Positions 1 to 64,000 of a stretch of DNA of 64,000 bases are shown piece by piece. Both the position numbers and the translations under genes were made by a program. The notes beneath the pieces were generated by a model. It was given only the letters and a program-made list of their open reading frames with translations. It was not told where the DNA came from and searched no databases. The DNA is taken from positions 4,663,324-4,727,323 of the forward strand of contig NC_133041.1 of assembly GCF_048771995.1 (NCBI RefSeq), written 5' to 3'. Source of the DNA: Taeniopygia guttata. Taxonomy: Eukaryota. Position 1 is the first letter of the stretch; each line of letters starts with the position of its first letter.

Positions 1-518
1 AACACACCTGGGTGGAGTCAGGGTACACCTGGATTGGGTTAGGGAACACCTGGATACACCTGGGTGGGGTCAGGGCACACCTGGGCACACTTGGAGGGGG
101 TAAAGACACACCTGGAGGGGGTTAGGGCACACCTGGGTGGGGTTGGGGCACACCCGGGTACACCAGGAGGGGGTCAGGGCACACCTGGGTGGGGTAAAGA
201 CACACCTGGGCACACCTGGGTGGGGTTGGGGCACACCTGGATACACCTGGAGGGGGTCAGGGCACACCTGTCCCTAAAATCTGTCCCTAAAATCTCAGGA
301 TTTTTGGGTTGAAATTCTGGATTTTTGGCATTTTTTTACCTGCCCAGGTGCGCCTCACCTGTTGCAGAAGTTCTCACCTGGTTTTGGGCCCTCACCTGTC
401 CCTAAAATCTCAGTATTTTTGGGTTAAAATTCCGGATTTTGGGCATTTTCTCACCTGCCCAGGTGTGCCTCACCTGTCTCACCTGTCCAGGTGTGCCTCA
501 CCTGTCTCACCTGCGCAG

Positions 519-678
519 GTTCGTGTACGCCAAGGACCGCACGGACCGGATCCGCACCTGCGCCATCCTGTGCCACATCTACCACCACGCCCTGCACAGC
601 CGCTGGTACCGCGCCCGCGACCTGATGCTGATGTCGCACCTGCAGGACAACATCCAGCACGCCGACCCACCTGTGCAG
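519..678 (+). CDS. EIF3C: EIF3C internal exon, translating (R)[53 protein letters not shown]; first EIF3C exon inside the window, upstream exons lie before position 1
   Basis: The translation is near-identical to the human eIF3c segment ...[49 protein letters not shown]. The acceptor is cgcag|g at 518/519 and the donor gtgcag|gtgagt at 678/679; the reading frame is continuous with the next exon. Confidence 0.88.
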
Positions 679-679
679 G

Positions 680-6475: not shown

Positions 6476-6839
6476 ATCCTGTACAACCGCACGATGGTGC
6501 AGCTGGGCATCTGCGCCTTCCGGCAGGGGCTGATCAAGGACGCGCACAACGCGCTGCTGGACATCCAGAGCTCCGGCCGGGCCAAGGAGCTGCTGGGCCA
6601 AGGTCTTCTCCTGCGCAGCCTCCAGGAGCGCAACGCCGAGCAGGAGAAGGTGGAGAAGCGCCGCCAGGTGCCCTTCCACATGCACGTCAACCTGGAGCTC
6701 CTCGAGTGCGTCTACCTGGTGGCCGCCATGCTGCTGGAGATCCCCTACATGGCGGCGCACGAGTTCGACGCGCGCCGCCGCATGATCAGCAAGCAGTTCC
6801 ACCACCAGCTGCGCGTGGGCGAGAGGCAGCCGCTGCTGG
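6476..6839 (+). CDS. EIF3C: EIF3C exon, translating [122 protein letters not shown]
   Basis: About 95% identity to the PCI-domain region of human eIF3c. The acceptor is ccccag|atc and the donor ctgctgg|gtgagg, leaving phase 1 to join the next exon. Confidence 0.9.
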
Positions 6840-6849
6840 GTGAGGGGCA

Positions 6850-8930: not shown

Positions 8931-9171
8931 TTCTGTTTTTTACCCCAAAAATTCCCATTTTTTTGCCCAAAATCACCATTTTTCACCCCAAAACTGCCAA
9001 TTTTTTACTCCAACCTGTCTCAGGTGCTTTTCTGACCTCCAAAATCCAAAAAAAATCCCATTTTTTTGCCCCAAAACCACTGATTTTTTGGGATTTTTTT
9101 TTATTTCCCGTCCCCTCACCTGCCCCAGTGTCCCTCACCTGTCCCAGGTGTGTCTCACCTGTCCCCCCCAG

Positions 9172-9331
9172 GTCCCCCCGAGTCGATGCGGGAGCACGTG
9201 GTGGCCGCCTCCAAGGCCATGAAAACGGGCGACTGGCGGCGCTGCCATCGCTTCGTGGTCAATGAGAAGATGAACGGAAAGGTCTGGGACCTGTTCCCCG
9301 AGGCCGACCAGGTGCGCGCCATGCTGGTCAG
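9172..9331 (+). CDS. EIF3C: EIF3C exon, translating (G)[53 protein letters not shown]
   Basis: Matches human [53 protein letters not shown]. The acceptor is cccccag|gt and the donor gtcag|gtgagc. Confidence 0.9.
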
Positions 9332-9339
9332 GTGAGCAC

Positions 9340-10600
9340 ACCAAAATTTGGGGGGTTTTGGGAAAATTTGGGCGAAATTTGGGCGATTTTTGGCCATTTT
9401 TTGGTGATTTTATAGTGATTTTTGGGGGGTTTTTAGGGGCATTAAAGGGTTAAAAATGAGGGTTTGAGGTGCTCAGGTGAGTCTCAGGTGAGCCTCAGGT
9501 GAGTCAGGTGAGTCCCACCTGGGCCAATTAAAAATTTTGGGGGATTTTGGGAAATTTTGGGCGAATTTTGGCAATTTTGAGCAATTTTACGGTGATTTTT
9601 TAGAGATTTTCGGGGGTTTTTGGGGAGGATTTTCGGCAGGAAATGAGGATTTAAAGTGATCAGGTGTGTCTCAGGTGAGTCTCACCTGGGCAGGTGTGGC
9701 CAGGTTAAAAAAAACTGTGAATTTTGGGGGATTTTGGGCAATTTTGGGTGAATATTGCCAATTTCGGATAATTTTTGGCATTTTTAAGTGATTTTTGGGG
9801 GTTTTGGGGTGATTTTGGCCGTTTTGGGGGGATTTGGGGAGGTTCAAAGTCTGGGACCTGTTCCCCGAGGCCGACCAGGTGCGCGCCATGCTGGTCAGGT
9901 GAGCGACCCCAAATTTTGGGGGGTTTTGGGAAAATTTGGGCGAAATTTCGGCGATTTTTGGCCATTTTTGGGCGATTTTATAGCGATTTTTAGGGGTTTT
10001 TTTGGGGCGTTAAGGGTTAAAAATGAGGATTTGAGGTGCTCAGGTGAGTCTCAGGTGAGCACACCTGGACACAGGTGAAAAAATTTAGGGGGAATTTTCA
10101 GGGATTTTGGGCAATTTTGGGCAAATTTTGGCCATTTTTGGGTGATTTTAGAGGGATTTTAGAGGGATTTTTGGGGGTTTTTGGGGAGATTTACGGTTAA
10201 AAATGAGGATTTGAGGTGCTCAGGTGAGTCTCAGGTGAGTCTCAGGTGAGCACACCTGGACACAGGTGAAAAATTTTTGGGGTAAATTTGGGCAAATTTT
10301 GGCAATTTTGGGTGAATTTTCGGCAATTTTGAGCGATTTTAGGGCGGTTTTATGGGGATTTTCGGGGTTTTTTGGGAGATTTAGGGTTAAAAATGAGGAT
10401 TTGAGGTGCTCAGGTGAGTCTCAGCTGAGTCTCACCTGGGCAGGTGTGGCCAGGTAAAGAAAAACGTGAATTTCGGGGAATTTTGGGCGAATTTTGGCAA
10501 TTTTGGGTGATTTTAGGGGGATTTTAAGAGAATTTGGGGTAAAAAATGTGGATTTGAGGTGCCCAGGTGCACCCAGGTGTGCCCAGGTAAGGAAATTTAG
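9340..10600 (+). repeat. Intronic array of ~250-bp units ending in gtgctcaggtgagtctcaggtgagc; one unit (9848-9898) contains a copy of the 3' end of the EIF3C exon at 9172-9331 with its donor
   Basis: gtctgggacctgttccccgaggccgaccaggtgcgcgccatgctggtcag|gtgagcg at 9848-9898 duplicates 9281-9338. Confidence 0.85.
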
Positions 10601-11330
10601 CCAATTTTGGAATATTTTGGGATATTTTGGGACATTTTGGGGCAGGAAATGAGAATTTGGGGGGTCAGGGGCGTGCCCAGGTGTGCCCAGGTGTGCCCAG
10701 CTGCCCCCAGGTGTGCCCAGCTGCCCCCAGGTGTGCCCAGGTGTGCCCCAGGTACCCTCAGGTGTGCCCAGGTGTATCCCAGGTGTGCCCAGGTGTATCT
10801 CAGGTGTATCTCAGGTGTGCCCAGGTGTGCCCAGGTGTGCCCAGGTGCCCCAGGTGTGCCCAGGTGTGCCCAGGTGTGCCAGGTGTGCCAAGGTGGCCCC
10901 AGGTGTATCTCAGGTGTGCCCAGGTGTGCCCAGGTGTGCCCAGGTGCCCCAGGTGTGCCCAGATGTGCCCAGGTGTGCCCAGGTGTGCCCAGGTGTATCT
11001 CAGGTGGTGCCCAGGTGTGCCCAGGTGTGCCCAGGTGTGCCCAGGTGTATCTCAGGTGTGCCCAGCTGTGCCCAGGTGTGCCCCAGGTGTGCCCAGGTGT
11101 GCCCAGGTGTGCCCAGGTGTATCCCAGGTACCCCCAGGTGTGCCCAGGTGTATCTCAGGTGCCCCCAGGTGCCCCCAGGTGCCCCCAGGTGCCCCCAGGT
11201 GCCCCCAGGTGTGCCCAGGTGTATCTCAGGTGTGCCCAGGTGTGCCCAGGTGTGCCCAGGTGCCCCCAGGTGTGCCCAGGTGTATCCCAGGTGTGCCCAG
11301 GTGTGCCAGCTGTGCCCTCTGTGCCCGCAG
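10600..11330 (+). repeat. Array of about 80 copies of (CCCAGGTGTG) with a CAGGTG E-box core, ending at the acceptor of the EIF3C exon at 11331
   Basis: The period is 9-10 bp. All three forward reading frames are open (ORFs 10607-11536, 10627-11454 and 10683-11489). Confidence 0.9.
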
Positions 11331-11396
11331 GAAGATCCAGGAGGAATCTCTCCGCACGTACCTGTTCACCTACAGCAGCGTCTACGACTCCATCAG
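11331..11396 (+). CDS. EIF3C: EIF3C exon, translating (R)[21 protein letters not shown](S)
   Basis: Identical to human [22 protein letters not shown]. The acceptor is cccgcag|g and the donor catcag|gtcc. Confidence 0.88.
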
Positions 11397-11399
11397 GTC

Positions 11400-12840
11400 C
11401 GTTTTTTGGGGGGAAAAATGGGGATTTTGGGTCAAAAAAAAGAAAAAAAAATAATTTTTGGGGTGAAAAATGGGGATTTTGGAGTTTAAAAAAAAATATT
11501 AATTTTGGGGTAAAAAAAAAGCTTATTTGGGGGTAAAAAATGGGAATTTTGGGGTATAAAAAGCGGGTTTGGGGGTAAAAAAAAGTGAATTTTGGGGTAA
11601 AAAATTTGAATTCGGACGGGAAAAATTGGTGAGTTTTGGGGTTAAAAATGTAAATTTTCAGGTAAAAAATGGAGGAGTTAAAAGGGAAAAATTGGTGAAT
11701 TTTAGGGTAAAAAAATAATTTTGGGGTATAAAAAGTGGGTTTGGGGGCAAATAAAACTGAATTTTCGGGTAAAAATGTGAATTCTGAACGGAAAAATTGG
11801 TGAATTTAGAAGGGAAAAATTGGTGATTTGGGGTAAAAAATGGATTTTGGGGTGAAAAATGGGAATTTTGGGGTAAAAAAACCTGGATTTTGGGGTAAAA
11901 AATGTGAATTTTGGGGTAAAAAAGGGTGATTTGGGGTAAAAAAAAAAGCGAATTTTGGGGTAAAAAATGTGAATTTTGGGGTAAAAAAGTGTATTTGGGT
12001 ATAAAAAAAAGTTAATTTTGGGTAAAAAATAGCGGCTTTACAAGGCAAAAATTGGTGAATTTTGGGGTTAAAAAAATGTGAATTTTGGGCTAAAAAATGT
12101 GAATTTTGGGGTAAAAAGGGGTGAATTTAGAAGGGAAAAATTAGTGAATTTTGGGGTAAAAAAATGTGAATTTTGGGGTAAAAAGGGGTGAATTTAGAAG
12201 GGGAAAATTAGTGAATTTTGGGGTAAGAAACAGCTATTTTAGAAGAAAAAAACTAGTGAATTTTGGGGTAAAAAATATAAATTTTGGGGTAAATAAGAGT
12301 GGATTTAAAAGGGGAAAGTTGGTGAATTTTGGGGTAAGAAATGTGAACTTTGGGGTAAAAACTAGCGATTTTAGAAGGGAAAAATTGGTGAATTTTGGGG
12401 TAAAAAATCATAAATTTTGGGGTAAAAAAATAATTTTAGGGTACAAAAAAAGTTGATTTTGGGGTAAAAATGAATTTTTCGGGTAAAAAATAGCAGATTT
12501 AAAAGGCAAAAATTGGTGAATTTTGGGGTAAAAAAATGTGAATTTTGGCATAAAAAGGGGTGAATTTATAAGGGAAAAATTGGTGAATTTTGGGGTAAAA
12601 AGGGGTGAATTTAGAAGGGAAAAATTTGTGGATTTTGGGTAAAAAATATTAATTTTGGGGTAAAAAATGTGAATTTTTGGGTAAAAAATAGGAATTTTGG
12701 GGTAAAAAAATAATGAATTTTGGGGTAAAAAGGGGTGAATTTAGAAGGGAAAAATTAGTGAATTTTGGGGTAAAAAAACCACAAATTTTGGGGTAAGAAA
12801 TACTTTGGGTGTAAGAGGGCCGGATTTTGGGTTGAAAAAG
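11400..12840 (+). repeat. A/G-rich minisatellite (ggggtaaaaaatgtgaattttggggtaaaaagggg..)
   Basis: A simple tandem repeat, seen directly. Confidence 0.85.
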
Positions 12841-12859
12841 GGGGATTTTGGGCCGGCAG

Positions 12860-12947
12860 CATGGAGACGCTGGCGGCCATGTTCGAGCTGGACCTGCCGA
12901 CGGTGCACGGCATCATCAGCAAGATGATCATCAACGAGGAGCTGATG
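12860..12947 (+). CDS. EIF3C: EIF3C exon, translating (S)[29 protein letters not shown]
   Basis: Matches human [30 protein letters not shown]. The acceptor is ggcag|c and the donor gatg|gtgagc. Confidence 0.88.
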
Positions 12948-12949
12948 GT

Positions 12950-15300
12950 GAGCGCCTTTTGGGGCAAATTCCGGCCGGTTTGGGTCAAAAGGGAAATTTG
13001 GGGGATTTGGGGTCATTTCCGGCTCGGTTTGGGTCACCCGCGGGCAAATTCGGGGCAGTTTTGGGGCAGTTTTGGTGTTTTGGGGTCAAATTTGGGAACA
13101 GGTTGGGTGATTTTGGGTCAGATTTGGGGCAGTTTTGGGGTCAATTTTGGGGTCAGATTGGGTGATTTTGGGGCAGTTTTGGGGTCAATTTTGGTGATTT
13201 TGGGTCAAATTTGGGTTCTAATTGTGTGATTTTGGGACAGTTTTGGGGCAGTTTTGGGGTCAATTTTGGTGATTTTGGGTCAAATTTGGGTTCTAATTGT
13301 GTGATTTTGGGACAGATTTGGGATCAGGTTGGGTGATTTTGGTTCAAATTTTGGGTCAGATTGTGTCAAATCTTGGGTTTAATTTGGGGGAGTTTTGGGT
13401 CATTTGGGCTCATTTTGGGTCATTTTGGGTCACTTGGGGTCAATTTGGGTGATTTGGGGTCAAATTTGGGGCCGTTTTGGGGTCAATTTTGGTGATTTTG
13501 GGTCAAATTTGGGGCAGTTTTGGGGTTAATTTTGATGATCTTGGGTCAAATTTGGGGTCAGGTTGGGTGATTTTGGGGCAGATTTGGGGCGGGTTTTGGG
13601 TCAAATTTGGGGTCAGATTGGGTGATTTTGGGTCAGTTTTGGGGAAGTTTTGGGGTAAATTTTGGTGATTTTGGGGCAGTTTTGGAATCAATTTTGGTGG
13701 TTTTGGGTCAAATTTGGGGCAGTTTTTGGTGTAAATTTTGGTGATTTTGGGTCAATTTTGGGAACAATTTGGGTGATTTTGGGTCAGATTTGGGGCAGTT
13801 TTTGCGTCAATTTTGGTGATTTTGGGTCAGATTTGGGATGAGGTTGGGTGATTTTGGGTCAAATTTTAGGGGTTTAGATTGGGTCAAATCTTGGGTTTAA
13901 TTTTGGGGAGTTTTGGGTTATTTGGGCTCAATTTGGGGAGTTTAGGGTCACTTGGGGTGAATTTGGGTGATTTGGGGTCACATTTGGGGCAGTTTTGGGG
14001 TCAATTTTGGTGATTTTGGGTCAGATTTGGGGCAGTTTTGGGGTCAATTTTGGTGATTTTGGGACAGATTTGGGGCAGTTTTTGGGTCAATTTTGGTGAT
14101 TTTGGGTCAGATTTGGGAACAGGTTGGGTTATTTTGGGGCAGATTTGGGGCAGTTTTTGGGTCAAATTTGGGGTCAGATTGGGTGATTTTGGGTCAGATT
14201 TGGGGCAGTTTTGAGGTCAATTTTGGTGATTTTGGGTCAAATTTGGGGTGGTGTTGGGAGATTTTGGGACAGATTTGGGGTCAATTTTGGGGTCAATTTT
14301 GGTGATTTTGGGTCAAATTTGGGGCAGTTTTGGGGTTAATTTTGATGATCTTGGGTCAAATTTGGGGTCTGGTTGGGTGATTTTGGGTCAGATTTAGGGC
14401 GGTTTTGGGTCAATTTTGGGGATTTTGGGTCAAATTTGGGGCAGTTTTGGGATCAATTTTGGTGATTTTGGGTCAAATTTGGGGTCTGGTTGGGTGATTT
14501 TGGGTCAAATTTGGGGTCAGGTTGGGTGATTTTGGGGCAGTTTTGGGGTCAATTTTAGGGTCAATTTTGGTGATTTTCGGTTAAATTTGGGGCAGTTTTT
14601 GGGTCAATTTTGGTGATTTTGGGTCAGATTTGGGGTCAGATTGGGTGATTTTGGGTCAGATTTGGGGTCAGATTGGGTCAAATCTTGGGTTTAATTTCGG
14701 GGAGTTTTGGGGCATTTGGGCTCATTTTGGGGAGTTTTGGGTTACTTGGGGTGAATTTGGGTGATTTGGGGTCAATTTAGGGCGGTTTTGGGGCAAATTT
14801 GGGGCAGTTTGGGTGATTTTGGGGCAGATTTGAGGCAGTTTTGGGGTCAGTTTATGTGATTTTGGGTCAAATTTGGGGTCTGGTTGGGTGATTTTGGGTC
14901 AGATTTGGGGCCATTTTGGGGTCAATTTTGGTGATTTTGGGTCAAATTTGGGGTCAGGTTGGGTGATTTTGGGTCAAATTTGGGAACAAGTTGGGTGATT
15001 TATGTCAAATTTGGGGTCAGATTGGGTGATTTTGAGTCAAATTTGGGGCAGTTTTTGGGTCAAATCTGGGGTCAGATTGGGTCAAATCTTGGGTTAAATT
15101 TTGGGGAGTTTTGGGTCACTTGGGGTCAATTTGGGTGATTTGGGGTCACATTTGGGGCAGTTTTGGGGTCAATTTCAGTGATTTTGGGTCAAATTTGGGT
15201 CACTTGAAATTTGGGCTCAATTTGGGTCATTTTGGGGTCGGTTTGGGTGATTTTGGGGCAGATTTGGGGCAGTTTTGGTGGGATTTCAGGTGGGGTTTTG
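12950..15300 (+). repeat. G/T-rich minisatellite (ttttgggtcagatttggggcagttttggggtcaattttggtga)
   Basis: A simple tandem repeat, seen directly. Confidence 0.85.
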
Positions 15301-16413
15301 GGGGTTACCTGCAGCACAGGTGAGTCACCTGTGACCCCGTTTGGGGCCATTTTGGGGTGATTTTGGTCGGGTTTGGGGCAATTTTGGGCAGTTTTGGGGC
15401 AATCTCAGGTGGGTTTTCAGGGGTTACCTGCAGGACAGGTGAGCCTCACCTGGGCCCACTTTAGACCTCACTGGATGAGCCCAAGGTCACCACGATGATG
15501 GGGTGACCCCATTTGGGGCCATTTTGGGGTGATTTTGGGCAGGTTTGGGGTGATTTTTGGTAGTTTTGGGGTGATTTCGGGTGGGTTTTTGGGGGTTACC
15601 TGCAGGACAGGTGAGTCTCACCTGGGCCCACTTTAGACCTCACTGGATGAGCCCAAGGTCACCATGATGGTGGGGTGACCCCATTTGGGGCCATTTTGGG
15701 GTGATTTTGGGCAGTTTTGGGGCGATTTTGGGTGGGTTTTTGGGGGGGTTACCTGCAGGACAGGTGAGTCTCACCTGGGCACACCTGCAGGCCTCGCTGG
15801 ACCAGCCCACGGCCACGGTGATGATGGGGTGACCCCGTTTGTGGCCATTTTGGGGTGATTTTGGGCAGTTTTGGGGTGATTTTGGATGGGTTTTTGGGGC
15901 GGTTACCTGCAGGACAGGTGAGTCTCACCTGGGCACACCTGCAGGCCTCGCTGGACCAGCCCACAGCCACGGTGATTGTGGGTTGACCCCATTTGATGCC
16001 ATTTTGGGGTGATTTTGAGCAGGTTTGGGGCAGTTTTGGGGTGATTTCGGGTGGGTTTTTGGGGGTTACCTGCAGGACAGGTGAGCCTCACCTGGGCCCA
16101 CTTAAGACCTCACTGGATGAGCCCAAGGCCACCATGATGATGGGGTGACCCCGTTTGGGGCCATTTTGGGGTGATTTTGGGCAGTTTTGGGACGATTTTG
16201 GGTGGGTTTTTGGGGGGTTACCTGCAGGACAGGTGAGTCTCACCTGGGCACACCTGCAGGCCTCGCTGGACCAGCCCACAGCCACGGTGATGATGGGGTG
16301 ACCCCGTTTGGGGCCATTTTGGGGTTATTTTGGGCAGTTTTGGAGCGATTTCGGGTGGGTTTTTGGGGGGGTTACCTGCAGGACAGGTGAGTCTCACCTG
16401 GGCACACCTGCAG
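15300..16413 (+). repeat. About seven tandem ~120-bp units, each containing a copy of the acceptor and first ~45 nt of the EIF3C exon at 16414 (cacctgcag|GCCTCGCTGGACCAGCCCACGGCCACGGTGATGATG..)
   Basis: Close copies lie at about 15783, 15939 and 16250. Diverged copies (..ctcactggatgagcccaaggtcaccacgatgatgggg) lie at about 15461, 15630 and 16100. Confidence 0.88.
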
Positions 16414-16576
16414 GCCTCGCTGGACCAGCCCACGGCCACGGTGATGATGCACCGGACGGAGCCGACGGCCACGCAGAACCTGGCGCTGCAGCTGGCCGAG
16501 AAGTTGGGCAACCTGGTGGAGAACAACGAGCGGGTGCTGGACCAGCGGCAGGGCGCCTACGGGGGGTACTTCAGAG
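16414..16576 (+). CDS. EIF3C: EIF3C exon, translating [54 protein letters not shown](D)
   Basis: Matches human [55 protein letters not shown]. The acceptor is cacctgcag|gcc and the donor ttcagag|gtgagc. Confidence 0.88.
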
Positions 16577-16744
16577 GTGAGCACACCTGGGCACACCTGG
16601 GCACACCTGGGGGCACCTGGGAGGGAGAGAACAAAAAAAACCCGGTGGAAATGGGGTGAAAAATGGGGATTTTGGGGGGTTTTTGGGTTACCTGGGCACA
16701 CCTGAGCCCTGCCCCGTTCTCACCTGTCCCATCTTGTCCTGCAG

Positions 16745-16824
16745 ACCAGAAAGATGGCGGATACCGCAAAGGTGACGGGTACCTGCGGCGGGGCGGCTTC
16801 CGGCAGGAGCGCGGCAACTACTGA
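16745..16824 (+). CDS. EIF3C: EIF3C terminal coding exon, translating (D)QKDGYRKGDGYLRRGGFRQERGNY followed by a stop
   Basis: Matches the human eIF3c C-terminus [26 protein letters not shown]. The acceptor is tcctgcag|ac and the stop codon TGA is at 16822-16824. Confidence 0.85.
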
Positions 16825-16838
16825 CCCACACCTGCCCC

Positions 16839-17335
16839 ATGGATCCTTACCTGCCCCATAGATCCCTTACCTGCCCCATGGATCCTCACCTGTTCTACAA
16901 ATTCACTCACCTGGGCAAAAAGTCATCACCTGCCCCATGGACCCCTCACCTGCCCCATGGACCCCTCACCTGCCCCATAGATCCCTTACCTGCCCCATGG
17001 ATCCTCACCTGCCCCATAGATTCCTCACCTGCCCTATGGATTCCTCACCTGCCCCATAGATCCCTCACCTGCCCCATGGATCCCTTACCTGCCCCATAGA
17101 TCCCTCACCTGCCCCATAGATCCCTTACCTGCCCCATAGATCCCTTACCTGCCCCATAGATCCTCACCTGTTCTACAAATTCACTCACCTGGGCAAAAAG
17201 TCATCACCTGCCCCACGGACCCCTCACCTGCCCCATAGATCCCTTACCTGCCCCATAGATCCTTCACCTGCCCCATGGATTCCCTCACCTGCCCCATAGA
17301 TCCCTCACATGCCCCATAGATCCTCACCTGTTCCA
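16839..17335 (+). repeat. Minisatellite of ~21 bp (cacctgccccatagatccctt) in the EIF3C 3' flank or UTR
   Basis: It starts 15 bp after the EIF3C stop. ORF 16839-17099 there is repeat-encoded. Confidence 0.85.
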
Positions 17336-27289: not shown

Positions 27290-29040
27290 GGAATTTGGGG
27301 GGATTTGGGGGGATTTTGGGGTAATATTTGGGAAATTTTGGTGGAATTTTTGTGGGGATTTTGGTGGAATTTTTTGGAAATTTTGGGGAAATTTGGAATA
27401 GTTTTTGGGAAAATTTGGTGGAATTTCAGTGAAATTTTGGGGGAAATTTTGGGGGAATTTTGGGGGATTTTGGGGGAATTTTGTGGGAATTTTGTGGGAA
27501 TTTTGTGGGAATTTTGTGGGAAATTTGAAATGATTTTGGGGGAATTTGGGGAAAATTTGGGGAAATTTTGGGGGAATTTTGGAGAATTTTGGGGGAATTA
27601 TGTGAGAATTTTAAGGGAATGTAGAGGGAATTTGGGGGGAATTTTGGGGAAATTTGGAATAACTTTGGGGAAATTTTGAGAGAATTTTTGGGAAAATTTG
27701 GTGGAATTTTTGGGAAATTTGGGGTAAATTTTGGGAAAATTTGGGGGAAGTATGGGAGAATTTAAGGGAATGTAGAGGGAATTTGGGGGGAATTTTGGGG
27801 AAATTTGGAATAGCTTTTGGGAAAATTTGGTGGAGCTTTGGGAAATTTTGGAGGGAATTTTGGAGTAATTTTGGAGGGAATTTTGGGGGAATTTTGGGGG
27901 AATTTTGGGTGAATTCGCACCGATTTTTGGGGTGATTTTTGGGTGAATTTTGGCTGATTTTGGGGTGATTTCTGATCCAATTTTTGGGTGAATTTGGGGT
28001 GATTTTTGTGTGAGTTTGGGCCAATTTTGGGGTGATTTGGGGGTGATTTCTGATCCAATACTTGGGTGATTTTGGGGTGATTTTGGGGTGAATTTTGGGT
28101 GAATTTTGGGTTATTTTGGGGTGATTTCTGATCCGATTTTTGGGTGAATTTTGGGCGATTTTGGGGTGATTTCTGATCCGATTTTTGGGGTGATTGTGGG
28201 CCGATTTTTGGGTGATTTTGGGGTGATTTCTGTGTGAATTTTGGGTGAATTTGGGCCGATTTCTGGGTGAATTTTGGGTGAATTTTGGGGTGATGTTGGG
28301 GTGAATTTTGGGTGAAATTTGGGTGAATTTTGGCCAATTTTGGGGTGATTTTGGGGTGATTTATGAGCCAATTTTTGGGTGATTTATGAGCCGATTTTTG
28401 GGTGATTTTTGAGCCGATTTTTGGGTGAATTTTGGGTGAACTCGCACCGATTTTTGGGGTGATTTTTGGGTGATTTCTGATCCAATTTTTGGGTGATTTT
28501 TGGGTGAATTTTGGGTGATTTATGAGCCGATTTTTGGGTGATTTTTGAGGCGATTTTGGGGTGAATTTTGGGTGAACTTGCACCGATTTTTAGGTGATTT
28601 CTGAGCCAATTTTTGGGGTGATTTTGGGATGAATTTTGGCCGATTTTGGGGGTGATTTCGGGGTGAATTCCGGGTGAATTTTGTGTGATTTTGGGGGTGA
28701 ATTTTGGGTGAATTTTGGGTGATTTTTGGGCTGATTTTGGGGTGAATTTTGGCGGATTTTTGGGTGATTTTTGGGGTGAATTTTGGGTGAATTTCTGGGT
28801 GATTTTGGGGTTACTTTTGGCCGATTTCTGGGTGAATTTCGGGTGACTTTTGGGCCGATTTTGGGGTGAATTTTGGGTGATTTCTGGGTGAATTTTGGCT
28901 GATTTCTGGTTGAATTTTGGGTGAATTTGGGCCGATTTTTGGGGTGATTTCTGGGTGATTTCTGGGTGAATTTTGGGTGAATTTTGGCTGAATTTTTGGG
29001 TGACTTTTGGGTGAATTTAGGCCGATTTTGTGTCTCTCTC
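27290..29040 (+). repeat. G/T-rich minisatellites (gggaattttgggg..., then ttttgggtgaattttgggtgatttctgagccgatttttgg); the second family recurs at 33960-34560
   Basis: Seen directly. The minus-strand ORFs at 27611-28583 are repeat-encoded. Confidence 0.85.
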
Positions 29041-29046
29041 CCCCAG

Positions 29047-29157
29047 CTACGAGCGCTGCCTGGCGCTGGTTTTGGCCGCTCTGGCCCGGCCCGACCCGGG
29101 TCTGGCGCTGATGGTGGCGACGCACAACGAGGAGTCGGCCATGGCCGCGCTCCGAGG
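29047..29157 (+). CDS. PRODH2: PRODH2 exon, translating (S)YERCLALVLAALARPDPGLALMVATHNEESAMAALR(G)
   Basis: Matches human YSRCLELMLTHVARHGPMCHLMVASHNEESVRQATKR. The acceptor is ccccag|c and the donor cgagg|gtcagc. Confidence 0.85.
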
Positions 29158-29159
29158 GT

Positions 29160-31020
29160 CAGCGGGAACGGGAAAAATGGGAGATTTTGGGATTTATTGG
29201 GGATTTATTGGGATTTATTGGGGATTTATTGGGATTTATTGGGGATTTATTGGGATTTATTGGGATTTATTGGGGTTTATTGGGATTTATTGGGATTTAT
29301 TGGGATTTATTGGGATTTATAGGGGATTTATTGGGGATTTATTGGGATTTATTGGGATTTATTGGGATTTATTGGGATTTATTGGGGATTTATTGGGATT
29401 TATTGGGATTTATTGGGATTTATTGGGGATTTATTGGGATTTATTGGGATTTATTGGGATTTATTGGGATTTATTGGGATTTATTGGGATTTATTGGGGA
29501 TTTATTGGGATTTATTGGGGATTTATTGGGGTTTATTGGGATTTATTGGGATTTATTGGGATTTATTGGAGATTTATTGGGATTTATTGGGATTTATTGG
29601 GATTTATTGGGATTTATTGGGATTTATTGGGATTTATTGGGATTTATTGGGATTTATTGGGGAATTTTTGGGGTTTATTGGGATTTATTGGGGTTTATTG
29701 GGAATTATTGGGATTTATTGGGATTTATTGGGATTTATTGGGATTTATTGGGGTTTATTGGGATTTATTGGGATTTATTGGGGATTTATTGGGATTTATT
29801 GGGGATTTATTGGGATTTATTGGGATTTATTGGGATTTATTGGGGATTTATTGGGATTTATTGGGGATTTATTGGGAATTATTGGGATTTATTGGGATTT
29901 ATTGGGGATTTATTGGGATTTATTGGGATTTATTGGGGATTTATTGGGATTTATTGGGATTTATTGGGATTTATTGGGGATTTATTGGGATTTATTGGGA
30001 TTTATTGGGATTTATTGGGATTTATTGGGGTTTATTGGGATTTATTGGGATTTATTGGGATTTATTGGGGATTTATTGGGATTTATTGGGATTTATTGGG
30101 GATTTATTGGGATTTATTGGGATTTATTGGGGTTTATTGGGATTTATTGGGAATTTATTTGGGTTTATTGGGATTTATCGGGGATTTATTGGGATTTATT
30201 GGGGATTTATTGGGGTTTATTGGGATTTATTGGGATTTATTGGGGTTTATTGGGATTTATTGGGATTTATTGGGGTTTATTGGGGATTTATTGGGATTTA
30301 TTGGGATTTATTGGGATTTATTGGGAATTTATTGGGGTTTATTGGGATTTATTGGGATTTATTGGGATTTATTGGGATTTATTGGGATTTATTGGGATTT
30401 ATTGGGATTTATTGGGGATTTATTGGGGATTTATTGGGATTTATTGGGATTTATTGGGATTTATTGGGATTTATTGGGGTTTATTGGGGATTTATTGGGA
30501 TTTATTGGGATTTATTGGGGATTTATTGGGGATTTATTGGGGTTTATTGGGATTTATTGGGATTTATTGGGAATTTATTGGGGATTTATTGGGATTTATG
30601 GGGATTTATTGGGGATTTATTGGGATTTATCGGGGATTTATTGGGGTTTATTGGGATTTATTGGGGTTTATTGGGATTTATTGGGATTTATTGGGATTTA
30701 TTGGGGATTTATTGGGATTTATTGGAGTTTATTGGGGTTTATTGGGATTTATTGGGAATTTATTGGGAACTTGTTGGGAATTTTGGGGAATTTTTTGGGA
30801 ATTATTGGGAATTTTTGGGGAATTTTTTCTGGGAATTTTGGGGGAAATTTTTGGGATTTTTCTGGGAATTTTTGGGGATTTTTTTGGGGAATTTTGGGGG
30901 GATTTTTTGGGATTTTTCTCTGAATTTTTTTGCGGAATTTTTTTTGGGATTTTTGTTAATTTTTATTCAATTTTGGGTTCATTTTTTAAATTTTTTTTTT
31001 ATTTTGGGCATATTTTGCCC
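29160..31020 (+). repeat. 1.86-kb array of the 12-mer GGGATTTATTGG(G) with all three forward frames open
   Basis: ORFs 29030-31120 (696 aa), 29187-30923 and 29362-31140 are all repeat-encoded. Confidence 0.9.
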
Positions 31021-38257: not shown

Positions 38258-38895
38258 GCCGCCCCTCCCCCTCCCCCCTCCCCCTCCCCCCTCCCCGTCG
38301 ACCTCCTGCCCCTCCCCCCTCCCCCTCCCACCCCCGACCCTCCCCCCACCCCCACCCCCGCCCCTCCCCCTCCCACCATCGACCCCTCCCCCCTCAAACC
38401 CCCACTCCCGGAAGCCACGCCCACCGCCGTGACGTCACCGATGACATCATCAATGACGTCACCGCGCAAGAAGGGCGCGCCGCACGTCTGCGGCCTGTGC
38501 GCCAAGGAGTTCAAGAACGGCTACAACCTGCGGCGCCACCAGGCCACGCACGGTGACACCAACACCGCGACGGCGACAACACCCAAACGCGGCCACCACC
38601 CCCGCCCCTCCCCCACCCCGCCCATCCCCCACCCAAACCCGATGGAAGGAGGGGAAAACAAGGAATCGGCGCCGAAACGGAAGAGCCACGCGTGTGACAC
38701 GTGTGGGAAGGCGTTCCGCGACGTGTACCACCTGAAGCGGCACCGGCTGTCGCACACGGACGAGCGGCCGTTCCAGTGCCCCGTGTGCCAGCAGCGCTTC
38801 AAGCGCAAGGACAGGATGGCGGCGCACGTGCGCTCCCACCAGGGACACGTGCACAAGCCCTACGCGTGTGGCCACTGCGGGAAGAGCTTCTCCAG
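38258..38895 (+). CDS. MAZ: MAZ large exon with a Pro-rich region and zinc fingers 1-3, translating AAPPPPPSPSPLPVDLLPL...PHVCGLCAKEFKNGYNLRRHQATH...HACDTCGKAFRDVYHLKRHRLSHTDERPFQCPVCQQRFKRKDRMAAHVRSHQGHVHKPYACGHCGKSFS(R)
   Basis: Near-identity to human MAZ fingers PYICALCAKEFKNGYNLRRHEAIH and HACEMCGKAFRDVYHLNRHKLSHSDEKPYQCPVCQQRFKRKDRMSYHVRSHDGAVHKPYNCSHCGKSFSR. The acceptor is cccccag|gcc and the donor tccag|gtgggg. Confidence 0.88.
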
Positions 38896-55393: not shown

Positions 55394-55534
55394 CTGAGCA
55401 GCATGAGGGGGGGCAGGGCCAGGAAGGGCAGCAGCGAGTGGGGGAGGGGCAGCCACGCCCGCAGCCCCCAAAACGCCAAAGCCCCGCCCAGCCCGGCCCC
55501 GCCCGTCCCCGACGACCAATGGGAGAGCCCGGAG
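55394..55534 (-). CDS. CLN3: CLN3 exon, translating (S)[46 protein letters not shown]
   Basis: Aligns to human [48 protein letters not shown]. The acceptor is ccgcag|ctcc and the donor gctcag|gtgagacc. Confidence 0.78.
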
Positions 55535-56266
55535 CTGCGGGGGGCGGAGCCCGGTCAGAATGGCCACGCCCACTTCGAATTTTACTCAATTTCTGCGATT
55601 TTTGACCCAATTTTGGGATTTTGACCCAATTTTTGGGATTTTGGACCAAATTTTTGGGATTTTGGTCCCAATTTTTGGGATTTTTGGACCCCATTTTGGG
55701 AGATTTAAACCAATTTTAAAGCCTCAGCCCCAATTTGCATAGCCACGCCCACCTGACCCCGCCCAAATCCAATTTTTTGTAAATTTAAACGAATTTTCGC
55801 AAATTTTGACCCAATTTGGGTGATTTTGACCCAATTTTGCTGATTTTGACCCCATTTTTGGATAATTTAAAGTCATTTTAGAGCCCCAACCCCATTTTTG
55901 CATAACCACACCCACCCACAAAAAGCTCCGCCCAGTTGGCCCCACCCCAAATCCTTTTTTTTTTGTAATTTTGGATAAAATTCGTCCAATTTTGACCCAA
56001 TTTTGGGTGACTTCGACCTGATTTTGTAAGATTTAAACAAAATTTAAAGCCCCACACCCACTTTTGCATAACCACGCCCCCCACAAGAAGCCACGCCCAC
56101 AAGGCAAAAAAAATTTAACAATTTTGGTGATTTTTGACCAAATTTGAGAAATTTTGCCCCAAATTTTTGGGTTTTTTTTGGCCCCTCCCCCTTCTGAGGT
56201 GTGGCCCCAGGTGGGCGTGGCCCTGAGGTGAGGCCACGCCCCCCGAGCGAGGCCACGCCCCCTTAC

Positions 56267-60400: not shown

Positions 60401-60573
60401 CCTGTCCCCACAGGGTCGCAGTCGTGCCGGCTCCGATTCCGCGGCTCCTCCCCCTAAAAAAACCCGGGAAAACCCCAAAAATCCAGTCAGGAAAGGGGCG
60501 TGGCCACCCAAAAAAGGGGCGTGACCATCTAAAAAGGGGTGTGGTCCCCAAAAAAGGGGGCGTGGCCACTCAC

Positions 60574-60649
60574 GGGGCGTGGCTCCAGCAGGTCGCGGGC
60601 GGCGCTGAGCATCACCACGTACGGGAGGTTGTTGCACAGCCCCAAAATC
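60574..60649 (-). CDS. CLN3: CLN3 exon, translating (W)[25 protein letters not shown]
   Basis: Aligns to human [26 protein letters not shown]. The acceptor is ctacag|g and the donor cgcccc|gtgagtgg. Confidence 0.85.
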
Positions 60650-61167
60650 CTGTAGGGGCGGGGCTTAGGTGGGCGTGGCCACACTTGTGGGCGTGGTCAC
60701 AGATGGGTGTGGCTCGTCTGGAAGGGGCGTGGTTATGGGGGAAAGGGGAGGGGCCAAAATGGGGCAGTTTTGGCGGGAAATTTTTATGGGGTTGGAGTGG
60801 GGTTTAAATGGGTGTGGCAAAAGGGGCGGGGCTTAAATGGGTGGGGTGTCCACAAAATGGCTCCATTTTGGCGGGAAATTTTGGGGGAGAGTCTGTGTGG
60901 GCGTGGCCACAGGTTGGAGGGTCCGAAATGGGCGGTGCTTAAATGGGTGGAGTGCCCCTAAAATGTCTCAAGTTTGGCGGGAATTTCTTAAATGGGGGAG
61001 GGGCTTAAATGGGTGTGGCCACTCAGGTGGGTGTGGTCCAAAATGGGCGGGGTTTAAATGGGTGGGGGTGTCTCCAAAAGTGCTGAGTTTTGGGGGGAAA
61101 TTTGGCGGTTTTAGGGGTGTGGGAGGGGCTTAGGGGGCGTGGCCTCTTGTGGGGGCGGGGCACTTAC

Positions 61168-61231
61168 CAAAAAGCGGCTCCGATTCGCCAGGAAGGGGTC
61201 GGAGGGGGCGGGGCAGGGGCGGAGTCTTCAT
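61168..61231 (-). CDS. CLN3: CLN3 exon 2, translating (D)EDSAPAPPPPTPSWRIGAAF(W)
   Basis: Aligns to human [28 protein letters not shown]. The acceptor is ccaccag|at and the donor tttttg|gtaagtgcc. Confidence 0.75.
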
Positions 61232-61447
61232 CTGGTGGGGAGGGAGGGAAAGAGAAAAATTTCCAAAGGGATTTTGGGGCAATTTTAGGAGATTTTGGGG
61301 TTGTTTTTTCCCATCCCGCTCCCCACTCCCGGTTCCATTTCCTGCCTCCATTCATGTCCGTTTATCCCCGTTTTAATTCCAGGTTTTTTACCCCGAATTC
61401 CCAATTTTTAACCCTATTTTTAAATCCATATTTTTTTCCCCTCTCAC

Positions 61448-61478
61448 CCTGCTGCAGCAGCGGTTCCTCGTCCGCCAT
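61448..61478 (-). CDS. CLN3: CLN3 exon 1 coding part, translating MADEEPLLQQ(D)
   Basis: The ATG is the complement of 61476-61478 and the donor cagcagg|gtgagag is on the minus strand. It joins exon 2 in frame. The N-terminus is acidic like human MGGCAGSRRRFSDSEGEE. Immediately upstream, on the minus strand, are the TCACGTGA and TCATGTGA boxes. Confidence 0.65.
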
Positions 61479-61855
61479 GTTGAACACCGGTCATGTGACA
61501 CCGCCATCACGTGATTACCCCAAACTTAATCCCCATTGGGCGCTGCGTGGGCGTGGCTTTGAGACAGAAAAATGCATATTAATAACTTAGGGCGTGGCTT
61601 TGTAATAAGTTCATTCATATAATCACTATTGTGAGCGTGGTTTAAGAGCTCATAAATAATGATGTTACACAGGAGCGGGTTGGCGCCATATAAGGTAAAA
61701 AAGGCGTGATTTTGACCATATATGGTGCTAAGTGGGCGTGGCTTGTGGCTCCCCCTTTCCCTCCCGCTTCTCCCCTCAGGAGGCGCCGCCATTTTCTCCC
61801 CCCGCCGCCATTTTCTGCCCCCCCCCCCCCCTCCGCCATCCCCGTTTTTCCCCTC
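61479..61855. promoter_or_regulatory. Bidirectional CLN3 (-) / SGF29 (+) promoter interval, about 380 bp between the ATGs, with a palindromic E-box/CLEAR-type site aTCACGTGAt at 61506-61515 and an M-box-like TCATGTGA at 61491-61498, plus GC boxes (gggcgtggc)
   Basis: The motifs are seen directly in the sequence. CLEAR elements (GTCACGTGAC, bound by TFEB/TFE3) are characteristic of lysosomal gene promoters including CLN3; that part is established knowledge. Confidence 0.55.
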
Positions 61856-61930
61856 ATGGCGCTCGTCTCGGCCGATTCGCGCATCGCGGAGTTGCTGGGG
61901 GAGCTGCACCAGCTCATCAAACAGACGCAG
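61856..61930 (+). CDS. SGF29: SGF29 (CCDC101) exon 1, translating MALVSADSRIAELLGELHQLIKQTQ
   Basis: Matches the human SGF29 N-terminus MALVSADSRIAELLTELHQLIKQTQ as I recall it. The donor is acgcag|gtaccc. The ATG lies about 380 bp from the CLN3 ATG on the opposite strand. Confidence 0.82.
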
Positions 61931-62099
61931 GTACCCCCATTTATTTTAGGTTTTTCCCCTTTTTTATTTATTTTTTTTTTTAAGGATTTTTGGGGGTTTT
62001 TTTCCCTCAGGGTTTCCCCGTTTTGCAGCCCCGGGTCCCGTTTGGCCCTGAGGGATCCTCAAGGGTTTCGGTCTTTTCAAACTGTTTCCGCTGAGGGAG

Positions 62100-63180
62100 C
62101 CCAAAATCAATAATTTCACCCCAAAATAAGCCTTTTGCCCATCAGGGATCCCAAAAAATCACATACTTAACCCAAGAATCACCCATTTCACCCCAAAATA
62201 TGTTTTTTTCCCCCTCAGGGATCTCAAAAATCACACATTTAACCCAAGAATCACCCATTTCACCCCAAAATATTTTTTTTCCCCTCAGGGATCTCAAAAA
62301 TCACCTATTTCACCCCAAAATCACCCATTTCACTCCAAAATCAATTTTATTTCCCCATAGGATTCCAAAAATCACCCATTTAACCCCAAAATAACATTTT
62401 TTCCCCTCACTGATTACAAAAATCACCCATTTCACCCAAAAATCACCCATTTCACCCCCAATTCACCCATTTTACCCCAAAATCACCCATTTCACCCCAA
62501 AAATCACCAATTTCAGCACAAAATATCTTTTTTCCCCCTCACTGAGCCAAAAAAATCACCATTTCACATCCAAAATCAACTTTTTATTCCCTCAGGAATC
62601 TCAAAAATCACCCATTTTACCCCAAATCAGCAATTTCACCCAAAATAAACTTTTTTTTTCCCTTCACAAACCCCAAAAATCACCCATTTCACCCCAAAAT
62701 CACCCATTTCACCCCAAAAATCAACATTTTTTGCACCTTTCAACTTATTTTCTTCATTTCCCCAGTTTTTCCTAATTTCCCTCCTTTTTTCGTCATTTCC
62801 CCCTTCTCCTTTTTTCATTTCCCCATTTTTTCCTAATTCCCCCCCTTTTCCCCTCCACTTTCTTAATTTTCCCCCCATTTCCCCCTATTTTCCATTCTTT
62901 TTTCCTAATTTTCCCCCATTTCCCCCCCTTTTCCCTTCAGTTTTTCCCCATTTTCCCCCTCTTTACTAATTTCACCCCTTTTTTCCTTCCTTTACTTTTC
63001 ATTTACCCCTTTTTTTCCTAATTTCCTCCCCTTTCACCTCCTTTTTTTCCTCCTTTCCCCCTCTTTTCACCTCCTTTTTTCCCCATTTCCCCTCCTTTTT
63101 TCTTCATTTTCCCCAATTTCCCCCCCTTTTTCCCTCTTTTCCCCCAATTTTTCCCAAATTCCCCAATTTTTCTCCCCTCA
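62100..63180 (+). repeat. caccccaaaatcacccatttcac minisatellite in SGF29 intron 1; ctcacaattccctcctttttcct array from 63410
   Basis: Seen directly. Confidence 0.85.
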
Positions 63181-63181
63181 G

Positions 63182-63257
63182 GAGGAGCGTTCCCGCAGCG
63201 AGCACAACCTGGTGAACATCCAGAAGACGCACGAGCGGATGCAGACGGAGAACAAAA
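63182..63257 (+). CDS. SGF29: SGF29 exon 2, translating EERSRSEHNLVNIQKTHERMQTENK(I)
   Basis: Identical to human EERSRSEHNLVNIQKTHERMQTENKI. The acceptor is ccctcag|gag and the donor aaaa|gtaaaa. Confidence 0.85.
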
Positions 63258-63331
63258 GTAAAAAAATTCCGAGGTTTAAAGGGAATTTTGGGGCTTTTTG
63301 GCACATTTTGACTCTCAAAATTCCATTTTAG

Positions 63332-63404
63332 TTTCCCCCTATTACCGCACCAAGCTCCGAGGGCTCTACACCACAGCCAAGGCTGATGCCGAAGCCGAGT
63401 GCAA
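63332..63404 (+). CDS. SGF29: SGF29 exon 3, translating (I)SPYYRTKLRGLYTTAKADAEAEC(N)
   Basis: Identical to human SPYYRTKLRGLYTTAKADAEAECN. The acceptor is tttag|tt and the donor tgcaa|gtgagt. The gene continues beyond the window. Confidence 0.85.
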
Positions 63405-64000
63405 GTGAGTCCAAAATCCACAATTTTAAACCCAAAACCCCTCAAATTCTCATTTTATCCCCTCAAATTCCCATATTTCCCCTTCAAATTCCCATTTTAT
63501 CCCTTCAAATTCCCATTTTTCCCCCGTAAATTCCGATTTCCTCCCCCAGATTTCCACTTTTTGCACTCACATTTTCTTTTTTCCCCTCAGATTTCTGCTT
63601 TTTAACCTCAAATTCCCACTTTATCCCTTCAAATTCCCATTTTTCCCCTTCAAATTCCCATTTCTTCTGCAGTTCCCCCCTTTTTCCTCACAGTTCTCTT
63701 ATTTTTCCTCTCAATTCCCGTTTTTTCCCCACAATTCTCTCCTTTTCCCCCACAATTCCCTCCTTTTTCTTTACAATTCCCTCCTTTTTTCTCACAATTC
63801 CTTCCTTTTTCCTCATATTCCCTTATCTCCCCTCACAATTACCTTTTTTTCTCAAATTCTCTCCTTTTTCTTTAAAATTCCCTCATTTTTCCTGAAAATT
63901 CCCCCCTTTTTCCTCACAATTCCTTTTCCCCCACAATTGCTCCCTTTTTCTTTAAAATTCCCCCCTTTTTCTTTTTAAATTCCATTTTCTTTACAATTCC

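Follow-up and report, generated by a model that had tools for sequence, protein, structure and literature searches.

Several described systems come close to the locus considered here. At human CLN3, TFEB sites are located at −24 (AGCACGTGAT) and +6 (GTCACGTGAT) relative to the start site of transcription (TSS), and TFEB ChIP-seq has borne out both (review PMC6900386, which cites Sardiello 2009 and Palmieri 2011). Bound by TFEB, they increase transcription of CLN3 along with that of further lysosomal genes. Bidirectional promoters of the mammalian type are those with TSSs on opposite strands less than 1 kb apart, and divergent pairs at such distances often have regulatory elements in common (PMC2077898, PMC3082894). 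The TISU element is a combined YY1 site and translation start that is specific for very short 5'UTRs, and it is placed at about +5 to +30 of the TSS (PMC2518114; definition also PMC3177215). Avian dot chromosomes, in turn, are characterized by gene loss and by 'sequence stuttering' in introns (PMC12954441), and chicken EIF3C and MAZ have been assigned to dot chromosome 38 (supplement of PMC12954441). In the window, by which we mean the whole 64-kb stretch of zebra finch DNA that was analysed, EIF3C and MAZ are neighbours of CLN3, and the window agrees with what has been described for avian dot chromosomes, in keeping with a location of the finch locus on a repeat-laden 'dot' microchromosome. 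Set against these systems, the locus is a lineage-specific case of known kinds: the CLEAR module at CLN3 is already known, and the pairing of CLN3 with SGF29 is a real, bird-derived rearrangement. The 377 bp between the two start codons probably form a compact divergent promoter region in which the avian CLN3 CLEAR module and a separate SGF29 core promoter stand back to back, a reading that the motif content of the interval favours.

Head-to-head arrangement of CLN3 and SGF29 in birds

Read directly from the sequence, the start codon of CLN3 occupies positions 61478-61476 on the minus strand and that of SGF29 positions 61856-61858 on the plus strand. CLN3 and SGF29 are thus head-to-head in zebra finch, and the gap between the start codons (61479-61855) amounts to 377 bp, in agreement with the original prediction of about 380 bp. 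The identity of both genes was established by tblastn and by protein identity. With human CLN3 and SGF29 as queries, tblastn located the exons of CLN3 between 61478 and 47983 on the minus strand; SGF29 exons 1-3 came out on the plus strand, at 61856, 63179, and 63304. The CLN3 product, for which 14 exons were joined under the guidance of bird proteins, comprises 396 aa and, along its entire length, is 100% identical to 'battenin isoform X1 [Taeniopygia guttata]'. It carries the Pfam domain PF02487 (CLN3), as expected of a lysosomal/autophagy gene of the CLEAR network. The coding ends that face the interval are the following (a slash marks an exon-intron border here and below).

61448-61478, minus strand: coding part of CLN3 exon 1, ATG GCG GAC GAG GAA CCG CTG CTG CAG CAG G, encoding MADEEPLLQQ plus 1 nt
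61447-61446, minus strand: GT donor of CLN3 exon 1, exon end …CAG G/GTGAGA
61168-61231, minus strand: CLN3 exon 2 (DEDSAPAPPPPTPSWRIGAAFW), with AG acceptor and GTAAGT donor; 100% tblastn match to residues 11-32 of protein P0001
61856-61930, plus strand: first coding exon of SGF29 (MALVSADSRIAELLGELHQLIKQTQ), with a GT donor at 61931

MADEEPLLQQ, which had been put forward as the start of CLN3, is the N-terminus of both battenin X1 and battenin X2 in the NCBI annotation of zebra finch. The position and phase of the intron (…G/GT) after the short first coding exon are common to turtle (MEPEGWRRLSDSEG/GT), alligator, and squirrel monkey, and this common intron position supports CLN3 exon 1 as the true first coding exon. 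Crane, Catharus, and turtle have the first coding exon of SGF29 in 100% identical sequence. In an Rfam scan of 60,500-62,500, nothing credible turned up; plant MIR2118 gave the only hits (E 0.3-0.6, far under the gathering score).

The locus was compared with orthologous loci from nine other amniote and amphibian genomes. Together with zebra finch, SGF29 was found head-to-head with CLN3 in Catharus, parrot, pigeon, and crane, which makes five independent bird assemblies. The distance from ATG to ATG is 377 bp in finch, 297 bp in Catharus, 228 bp in parrot, 274 bp in pigeon, and about 5.5 kb in crane. In turtle and squirrel monkey, the gene head-to-head with CLN3 is APOBR, and in turtle NUPR1 (Pfam Phospho_p8) is head-to-head with SGF29; the APOBR…NUPR1 block of turtle and primate is absent between CLN3 and SGF29 in these birds. 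Since APOBR adjoins CLN3 in turtle and primate and NUPR1 adjoins SGF29 in turtle, the adjacency of CLN3 and SGF29 in birds is a derived state. The original prediction had it that APOBR, IL27, and NUPR1 separate the two genes in human; this was borne out in part, for APOBR beside CLN3 in primate and turtle and for NUPR1 beside SGF29 in turtle. The upstream neighbours of CLN3 in alligator differ (INO80E and an unnamed gene), and in kiwi no SGF29 exon was present in the ~8 kb upstream of CLN3, where the contig ends. A literature search found no paper on the CLN3-SGF29 pairing, nor on losses of NUPR1, IL27, or APOBR in birds.

The crane gap of 5.5 kb consists largely of tandem repeats and a duplicated promoter segment, and no gene was called in it. 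The segment, ~150-170 bp long and running from CTGATTGG via GCGCATGCGC to GCCGCCATTTTGT, occurs twice in the gap, with one copy beside the CLN3 E-boxes and the other beside the SGF29 ATG. Therefore, the compact layout is ancestral at least for Neoaves, and the expansion in crane is secondary. When three orthologous loci were compared with the window by blastn, the output was dominated by satellite matches.

The E-box pair and the leader of CLN3

A palindromic CLEAR-type site and an M-box had been predicted directly upstream of the CLN3 ATG, and both were read there with close matches to the consensus; the start codon itself lies in a TISU/YY1-like context.

61490-61499: proximal M-box-type E-box GTCATGTGAC (GTCACATGAC in the CLN3 direction), 9/10 against the CLEAR consensus GTCACGTGAC
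61506-61515: distal palindromic E-box ATCACGTGAT (core TCACGTGA), 8/10 against GTCACGTGAC with the core intact
61471-61482, minus strand: TISU/YY1-like start context CAACATGGCGGA, 11/12 against SAASATGGCGGC

The hexamers of the proximal and distal boxes are located 13 and 29 nt, respectively, from the CLN3 ATG. The two boxes are 16 bp apart from centre to centre, with a spacer of 10 bp between the hexamers (61498-61507). The octamer TCATGTGA at 61491-61498, 12 nt from the ATG, has T/A flanks on both half-sites and thus the TCATGTG of an M-box, a CATGTG core with a 5' T flank, and finch CLN3 has at least one GTCACGTGAC-type 10-mer with the core TCACGTGA, as is typical of CLEAR network members. 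The motif TCAYGTGA occurs at only two places in the 64-kb window, namely gTCATGTGAc at 61490-61499 and aTCACGTGAt at 61506-61515. Counted by strand, three matches were observed against 1.7 expected in 64 kb, a total that is not unusual. Nevertheless, chance is not a good explanation for the pair, which lies within 25 bp, stands beside a start codon, and is kept in nine amniote genomes. Two further candidates were rejected. A second E-box promoter at 38,698-38,851, with three CACGTG motifs, is part of a coding exon for MAZ-like zinc fingers, in which the motif results from His-Val codons. Tandem E-boxes bound by CLOCK:BMAL1 have a spacer of 6-7 bp, and the 10-bp spacer in finch does not correspond to a circadian E1-E2 element.

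A cluster of T-flanked E-boxes at the 5' end of CLN3 was found in nine amniotes, comprising six birds, alligator, turtle, and squirrel monkey. The boxes are listed below, with distances given from hexamer to ATG.

Zebra finch: ATCACGTGAT and GTCACATGAC, 29 and 13 nt
Catharus: TTCACGTGGG, ATCACGTGAT, and GTCACGTGAC, 46, 29, and 13 nt
Crane: three boxes, the proximal one GTCACATGAC, 45, 30, and 14 nt
Kiwi: three boxes, the proximal one GCCACGTGAC, 13 nt for the proximal box
Pigeon: two boxes, 109 and 38 nt
Parrot: one box, 11 nt
Alligator: GTCACGTGAC and GTCATGTGAC, 16 bp apart, plus a third box GTCACGTGAC
Turtle: GTCACGTGGC and GTCATGTGAC
Squirrel monkey: AGCACGTGAT and GTCACGTGAC, 29 bp apart

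The distal box ATCACGTGAT is identical in finch and Catharus, and the spacing of 16 bp is the same in alligator. In pigeon and parrot, only one side of the boxes carries the T flank (GTCACGTGG). Sauropsids have in common the flank …TGACC(C)GG that follows the proximal box. The proximal box itself alternates between CACGTG, CATGTG, and CACATG among species, as would be expected if an ancestral CACGTG had undergone CpG decay on one strand or the other while the site was retained. The spacing of the pair is 16-19 bp in sauropsids as against 29-30 bp in mammals, and the intervening DNA cannot be aligned; therefore, the correspondence between the sauropsid and the mammalian boxes is positional and not base-for-base. 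The squirrel monkey pair matches the 10-mers reported at −24 and +6 in human, and its equivalents are present in sauropsids, so that the position of the module is conserved with the validated sites of the orthologue. Consequently, the finch E-boxes are the counterpart of the already known CLN3 CLEAR module and not a new element. The proposal that they are lysosomal control elements of the TFEB/TFE3/MITF type is thereby supported, but such control is already known at human CLN3 (−24 and +6; PMC6900386), and for birds we infer MiT/TFE binding.

The same boxes may alternatively be constitutive housekeeping elements, serving mainly ubiquitous bHLH-ZIP factors (USF1/USF2, or MYC/MAX and MLX-family members) instead of MiT/TFE, although we consider such a main role unlikely. 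The sequence GTCACGTGAC is also a high-affinity USF site. The CATGTG variant is bound well by MITF/TFE factors, whereas CACGTG is the preferred site of USF and MYC, the latter of which disfavours a 5' T flank. The proximal site is a T-flanked CATGTG/CACATG in finch, crane, alligator, and turtle, and judged by these binding preferences its retention favours MiT/TFE. In human, USF2 is among the factors with at least three predicted sites near the CLN3 TSS, and CLN3 is broadly expressed; however, TFEB ChIP-seq occupancy has been reported at the human sites (PMC6900386). Use of the same boxes by the USF/MYC family is compatible with the two back-to-back core promoters preferred here, and the two are not mutually exclusive.

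The distance between the E-boxes and the start codon is a further feature of the bird locus. The E-box nearest to the CLN3 ATG lies at 11-38 nt in six birds, and the corresponding box lies at 193-354 nt in turtle, alligator, and monkey. Alligator and monkey have a short non-coding exon that ends with TTAAAG/GT just after the E-boxes. Exon 1 of kiwi (…GGTTGGCGGCGCCTG…, WRRL; …GGWRRL…) is homologous to the ATG exon of turtle, which indicates that the ATG exon of birds is the old one, brought next to the E-boxes. The sequence ATGGCGG at the CLN3 start codon is invariant in six birds. Finch CLN3 matches the TISU consensus SAASATGGCGGC in 11/12 positions with its own ATG as the start, thrush and pigeon likewise in 11/12, parrot within 10-11/12, and crane and kiwi in 8-9/12. 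The TISU score discriminates weakly, since alligator reaches 8/12 and turtle 9/12. The distal box holds an out-of-frame ATG in strong context (GTGATGG), as read directly from the sequence, which argues against a major CLN3 TSS upstream of this box. The collapsed leader, the TISU-like ATG, and the location of the human TSS between the CLEAR sites together suggest that the finch CLN3 TSS falls inside the E-box pair or immediately after it.

The SGF29 side and the extent of promoter sharing

The rest of the interval contains the following elements.

61535-61539, minus strand: CCAAT box of NF-Y type (ATTGG on the plus strand), a motif reading
61549-61746, plus strand: four GGGCGTGGCTT(T/G) GT boxes of KLF/SP type in AT-rich surroundings, starting at 61549, 61590, 61702 (degenerate), and 61734
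61686-61695 and 61716-61725: CArG-like boxes CCATATAAGG and CCATATATGG, respectively, a motif reading
61784-61821, plus strand: tandem 19-bp doublet CGCCGCCATTTTCT(C/G)CCCC of YY1 type (AAAATGGCGGC on the other strand), 35-72 bp upstream of the SGF29 ATG

The finch interval has a GC content of 52% and a CpG observed/expected ratio of 0.76, and its centre is AT-rich (36-38% GC around 61550-61700). It holds three extended YY1-type matches among five CCGCCAT cores, in addition to the CCAAT and GT boxes. No NRF1, GABP/ETS, or GGGCGG site was found in the finch interval; crane and turtle do have NRF1 sites. Positions 61763-61783, just before the YY1 doublet, contain a pyrimidine tract and then CAG. 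Several of these elements recur in other birds: CCAAT boxes are also found in the intergenic regions of pigeon, parrot, and crane, the GT boxes have counterparts in Catharus (GGCGTGG and GGGCGGGG), the CArG-like TTGACCATATATGG is identical in Catharus, and GCCGCCATTTTG is located near the SGF29 ATG in all five neognath birds, with two copies in Catharus. Between finch and thrush, the E-box module has an identity of 0.83 and the YY1 block one of 0.71, compared with 0.44-0.47 for the two segments separating the E-box module from the CArG region. In turtle, the ATG exon of SGF29 is preceded by a splice acceptor, the first exon is non-coding, and three NRF1-type GCGCATGCG sites lie upstream of the ATG exon; no E-box was found in the 470 bp read upstream of the turtle SGF29 ATG. 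In the birds compared, the YY1-type GCCGCCATTTT is always at the SGF29 end and the E-boxes are always at the CLN3 end. These motif positions, along with the SGF29 promoter of turtle, indicate a partition in which the E-boxes belong to the CLN3 end and the YY1/NRF1 elements to the SGF29 end.

Two back-to-back core promoters are favoured because the motifs are split by end in every bird and because the two ends are 5.5 kb apart in crane. The arrangement probably arose through two deletions in the bird lineage. The loss of the APOBR…NUPR1 block would have brought the SGF29 promoter within 230-380 bp of CLN3, and the loss of the non-coding CLN3 leader, which measures about 200-350 bp in turtle, alligator, and monkey, would have left an E-box 11-38 nt from the ATG in a TISU/YY1-like context. 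Such a collapse of the leader predicts a very short CLN3 5'UTR, with the TSS inside or just after the E-box pair. MiT/TFE factors, whose binding is known in human and presumed in birds, would act mainly on CLN3 through the CLEAR/M-box pair. SGF29 would be driven by its own GCCGCCATTTT YY1-type doublet, with the CCAAT and GT/GC boxes in the middle, and any effect of MiT/TFE on SGF29 would be secondary. Several points count against this model: parrot has one box, the T flanks are one-sided in pigeon and parrot, GTCACGTGAC is an optimal USF site as well, the sauropsid and mammalian pairs are spaced differently, and the TISU score discriminates weakly. Moreover, given the pyrimidine tract with CAG before the YY1 doublet and the non-coding first exon of turtle SGF29, any placement of the SGF29 TSS is tentative.

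The alternative is a truly shared bidirectional promoter, in which the CLEAR pair drives both genes and SGF29 would be induced together with CLN3 upon activation of TFEB/TFE3 in birds. The two genes lie head-to-head on opposite strands in finch and in four other birds. With the finch start codons 377 bp apart, the TSSs should be less than 1 kb apart unless there is a distal non-coding exon; in crane, the start codons are 5.5 kb apart. As the two ends are separated by less than 400 bp, some sharing is plausible (PMC2077898, PMC3082894), and the short distance in four neognath birds (228-377 bp), the presence of CCAAT, YY1, and GC/GT boxes, which are motifs of bidirectional promoters, and the copy of the SGF29 promoter segment beside the CLN3 E-boxes of crane, which makes the compact arrangement old, all speak for it. 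However, the E-boxes are at the far CLN3 end of the interval, some 270-340 bp away from the SGF29 ATG, and SGF29 has a conserved YY1-type element of its own. Moreover, the working SGF29 start of crane is 5.5 kb from the E-boxes, so SGF29 needs no nearby E-boxes, and the SGF29 promoter of turtle uses the NRF1-type GCGCATGCG with no E-box in the 470 bp mentioned above. We therefore regard a fully shared promoter as doubtful. Co-regulation of SGF29 through the CLN3 E-boxes, which had been anticipated in the original prediction, would be the less likely option on the sequence evidence.

A stronger variant would be that gene loss fused the CLN3 CLEAR module to the SGF29 promoter, so that TFEB/TFE3 drive SGF29 in birds only. 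In the SAGA/ATAC acetyltransferase module, which contains GCN5, SGF29 is the subunit that reads H3K4me3. GCN5, in turn, acetylates and inhibits TFEB (PMC6945067). If this were so, lysosome biogenesis would have come under a lineage-specific negative feedback through the fusion, but we consider this scenario highly unlikely. Finally, an artefact, either assembly collapse of a repeat-rich microchromosome or chance E-boxes, might be suspected since minisatellites crowd the region, dot chromosomes of birds are difficult to assemble (PMC12954441), and the total count of TCAYGTGA in the window is not significant, but it can be practically dismissed, as five independent bird assemblies show SGF29 and CLN3 head-to-head, the E-box module is kept in nine amniotes, and the crane gap, with no gene called, is mostly tandem repeats and duplicated promoter segment.

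Significance and comparison with known systems

The CLN3 CLEAR module is an ancient feature of amniotes that has survived a drastic compaction of the locus in birds. The locus also provides a natural example of how promoters are re-paired when genes are lost from avian dot chromosomes: SGF29 replaces APOBR as the divergent partner of CLN3. This raises a testable question, namely whether a transcription factor module keeps its gene specificity once a new divergent neighbour has come within 300 bp, and the compact (finch, pigeon, parrot) and expanded (crane) layouts constitute a natural experiment. As regards the biology of Batten disease, nothing is added beyond the confirmed conservation of the TFEB sites.

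The locus resembles other regions affected by the stuttering and gene loss of dot chromosomes (PMC12954441) in that the finch introns are full of local tandem repeats, amniote genes are missing from the interval, and the crane promoter is duplicated and split by repeats. It differs in that CLN3, SGF29, NUPR1, IL27, and APOBR are not mentioned in PMC12954441; the link between stuttering and this promoter is one that we infer. With the TISU element, finch CLN3 shares the match of CAACATGGCGGA in 11 of 12 positions, the ATG as the start codon, and the Met-Ala start typical of TISU genes, although the last base of the consensus differs and YY1 binding there is putative. The likeness to bidirectional promoters (PMC2077898, PMC3082894) consists in a head-to-head protein-coding pair with 377 bp between the start codons, conserved in several birds, and in the CCAAT, YY1-type, and GC/GT boxes of the finch interval. 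The difference is that the finch centre is AT-rich instead of forming a uniform CpG island and that GABP/ETS and NRF1 sites are absent in finch. The closest system remains the human CLN3 CLEAR promoter, which concerns the same gene and has the same tandem T-flanked CACGTG-type pair at the CLN3 5' end. In finch, however, the spacing is 16 bp compared with 29-30 bp in primates, and one of the boxes is a CATGTG (M-box). Furthermore, the boxes of birds lie 11-38 nt from the ATG, as against about 320-350 nt, and the divergent partner in birds is SGF29, whereas its counterpart there is APOBR.

Gene order around CLN3

CLN3, on the minus strand, is preceded in the zebra finch window by the following genes, all on the plus strand:

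~500-16,860, plus strand: 3' half of EIF3C
~20.4-29.1 kb, plus strand: PRODH-like gene
~38.0-40.8 kb, plus strand: MAZ-like zinc-finger gene

The locus comparison showed that in Catharus, crane, pigeon, alligator and turtle CLN3 is followed by EIF3C, with both genes running in the same direction. This arrangement, shared by five other species, points to an apparent inversion of the EIF3C-PRODH-MAZ block in the zebra finch, barring an assembly error. In the Alligator mississippiensis locus (L003 1-10,000), the genes found upstream of CLN3 are a PAGR1-like gene, an unnamed gene of 347 aa, INO80E and an unnamed gene of 199 aa, and neither APOBR nor SGF29 is among them. The absence of both from this interval argues that the crocodilian CLN3 locus has been rearranged independently. 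Alligator CLN3 is very compact, spanning 2.9 kb.

Tandem repeats in introns and in the crane promoter

Nearly all introns in the window (1-64,000) are occupied by strongly strand-skewed minisatellites, with GC skew reaching ±0.9. Examples are found at:

2,000-6,000: minisatellite
12,000-15,000: minisatellite
28,000-31,000: minisatellite
62,000-64,000: minisatellite

These intron minisatellites match the "sequence stuttering", a local tandem-repeat filling, described for avian dot chromosomes (PMC12954441). The mechanical ORF lists for the window consist mostly of repeat-derived ORFs. In the crane Grus americana, the region between SGF29 and CLN3 (L001 4,584-10,140) extends over 5.5 kb and is made up of tandem repeats, and both of its ends carry a duplicated promoter segment of roughly 150-170 bp, which contains a CCAAT box, a GC box, an NRF1 motif (GCGCATGCGC) and a YY1 motif (GCCGCCATTTTGT). 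A 43-bp unit, in which a CCAAT box lies together with a GC box, recurs there in 4.1 repeats with 99% identity (L001 9818-9993). Stuttering in the crane affects a promoter too, and is not confined to introns.

The CLN3 N-terminus and isoforms

The longest CLN3 product annotated in crane measures 437 aa and that in kiwi 500 aa, and both are N-terminally extended. The extensions translate across the promoter E-boxes, the CLEAR/M-box-type sites adjoining the CLN3 ATG (…DHVSCGHVCAGSHD…; …RRHVTP…; L001 10,001-10,139 in crane and L004 6,940-8,370 in kiwi), and in kiwi tandem repeats are translated as well. In both cases the extension is probably an artefact of annotation; the crane protein has its conserved start at MAEQEPLL, and the kiwi protein at MAAESGGGGWRRL. 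The finch N-terminus, MADEEPLL (61,461-61,478, minus strand), fits the acidic dileucine sorting motif [DE]XXXL[LI] and may be regarded as a candidate lysosomal targeting signal. There, EEPLL or QEPLL is retained in the passerines, gull, cormorant, buzzard, crane and pigeon, EEALL in parrot, and PEPRLPLL in human.

The NCBI zebra finch battenin isoforms X1 and X2 are distinguished by one exon:

55,396-55,536, minus strand: 47-aa CLN3 exon (SSGLSHWSSGTGGAGLGG…PPLMLL), included in X1 and skipped in annotated X2

At one residue, too, X2 departs from the window, having D where the window has E in PPPPPEPP, which suggests a polymorphism or another assembly underlying the X2 record.

Candidate elements upstream of SGF29

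The following features were recognized between the two start codons:

61,686-61,725: two CArG-like boxes, CCATATAAGG and CCATATATGG
61,692-61,700: donor-like site AAG|GTAAAA, about 90 bp upstream of the next feature
61,763-61,783: pyrimidine tract, then CAG, directly upstream of the YY1 doublet (tandem 19-bp YY1-type repeat)

The second CArG-like box, CCATATATGG, and its TTGA flank are unchanged in Catharus amid diverged neighbouring DNA, and this box could be an SRF-type or a YY1-overlapping site. The pyrimidine tract and CAG preceding the YY1 doublet are common to finch, Catharus and parrot. Judged from the sequence, the donor-like site and the pyrimidine tract with CAG could delimit a putative tiny intron in the SGF29 5'UTR, an arrangement that may be likened to that of turtle SGF29, whose first exon is non-coding.
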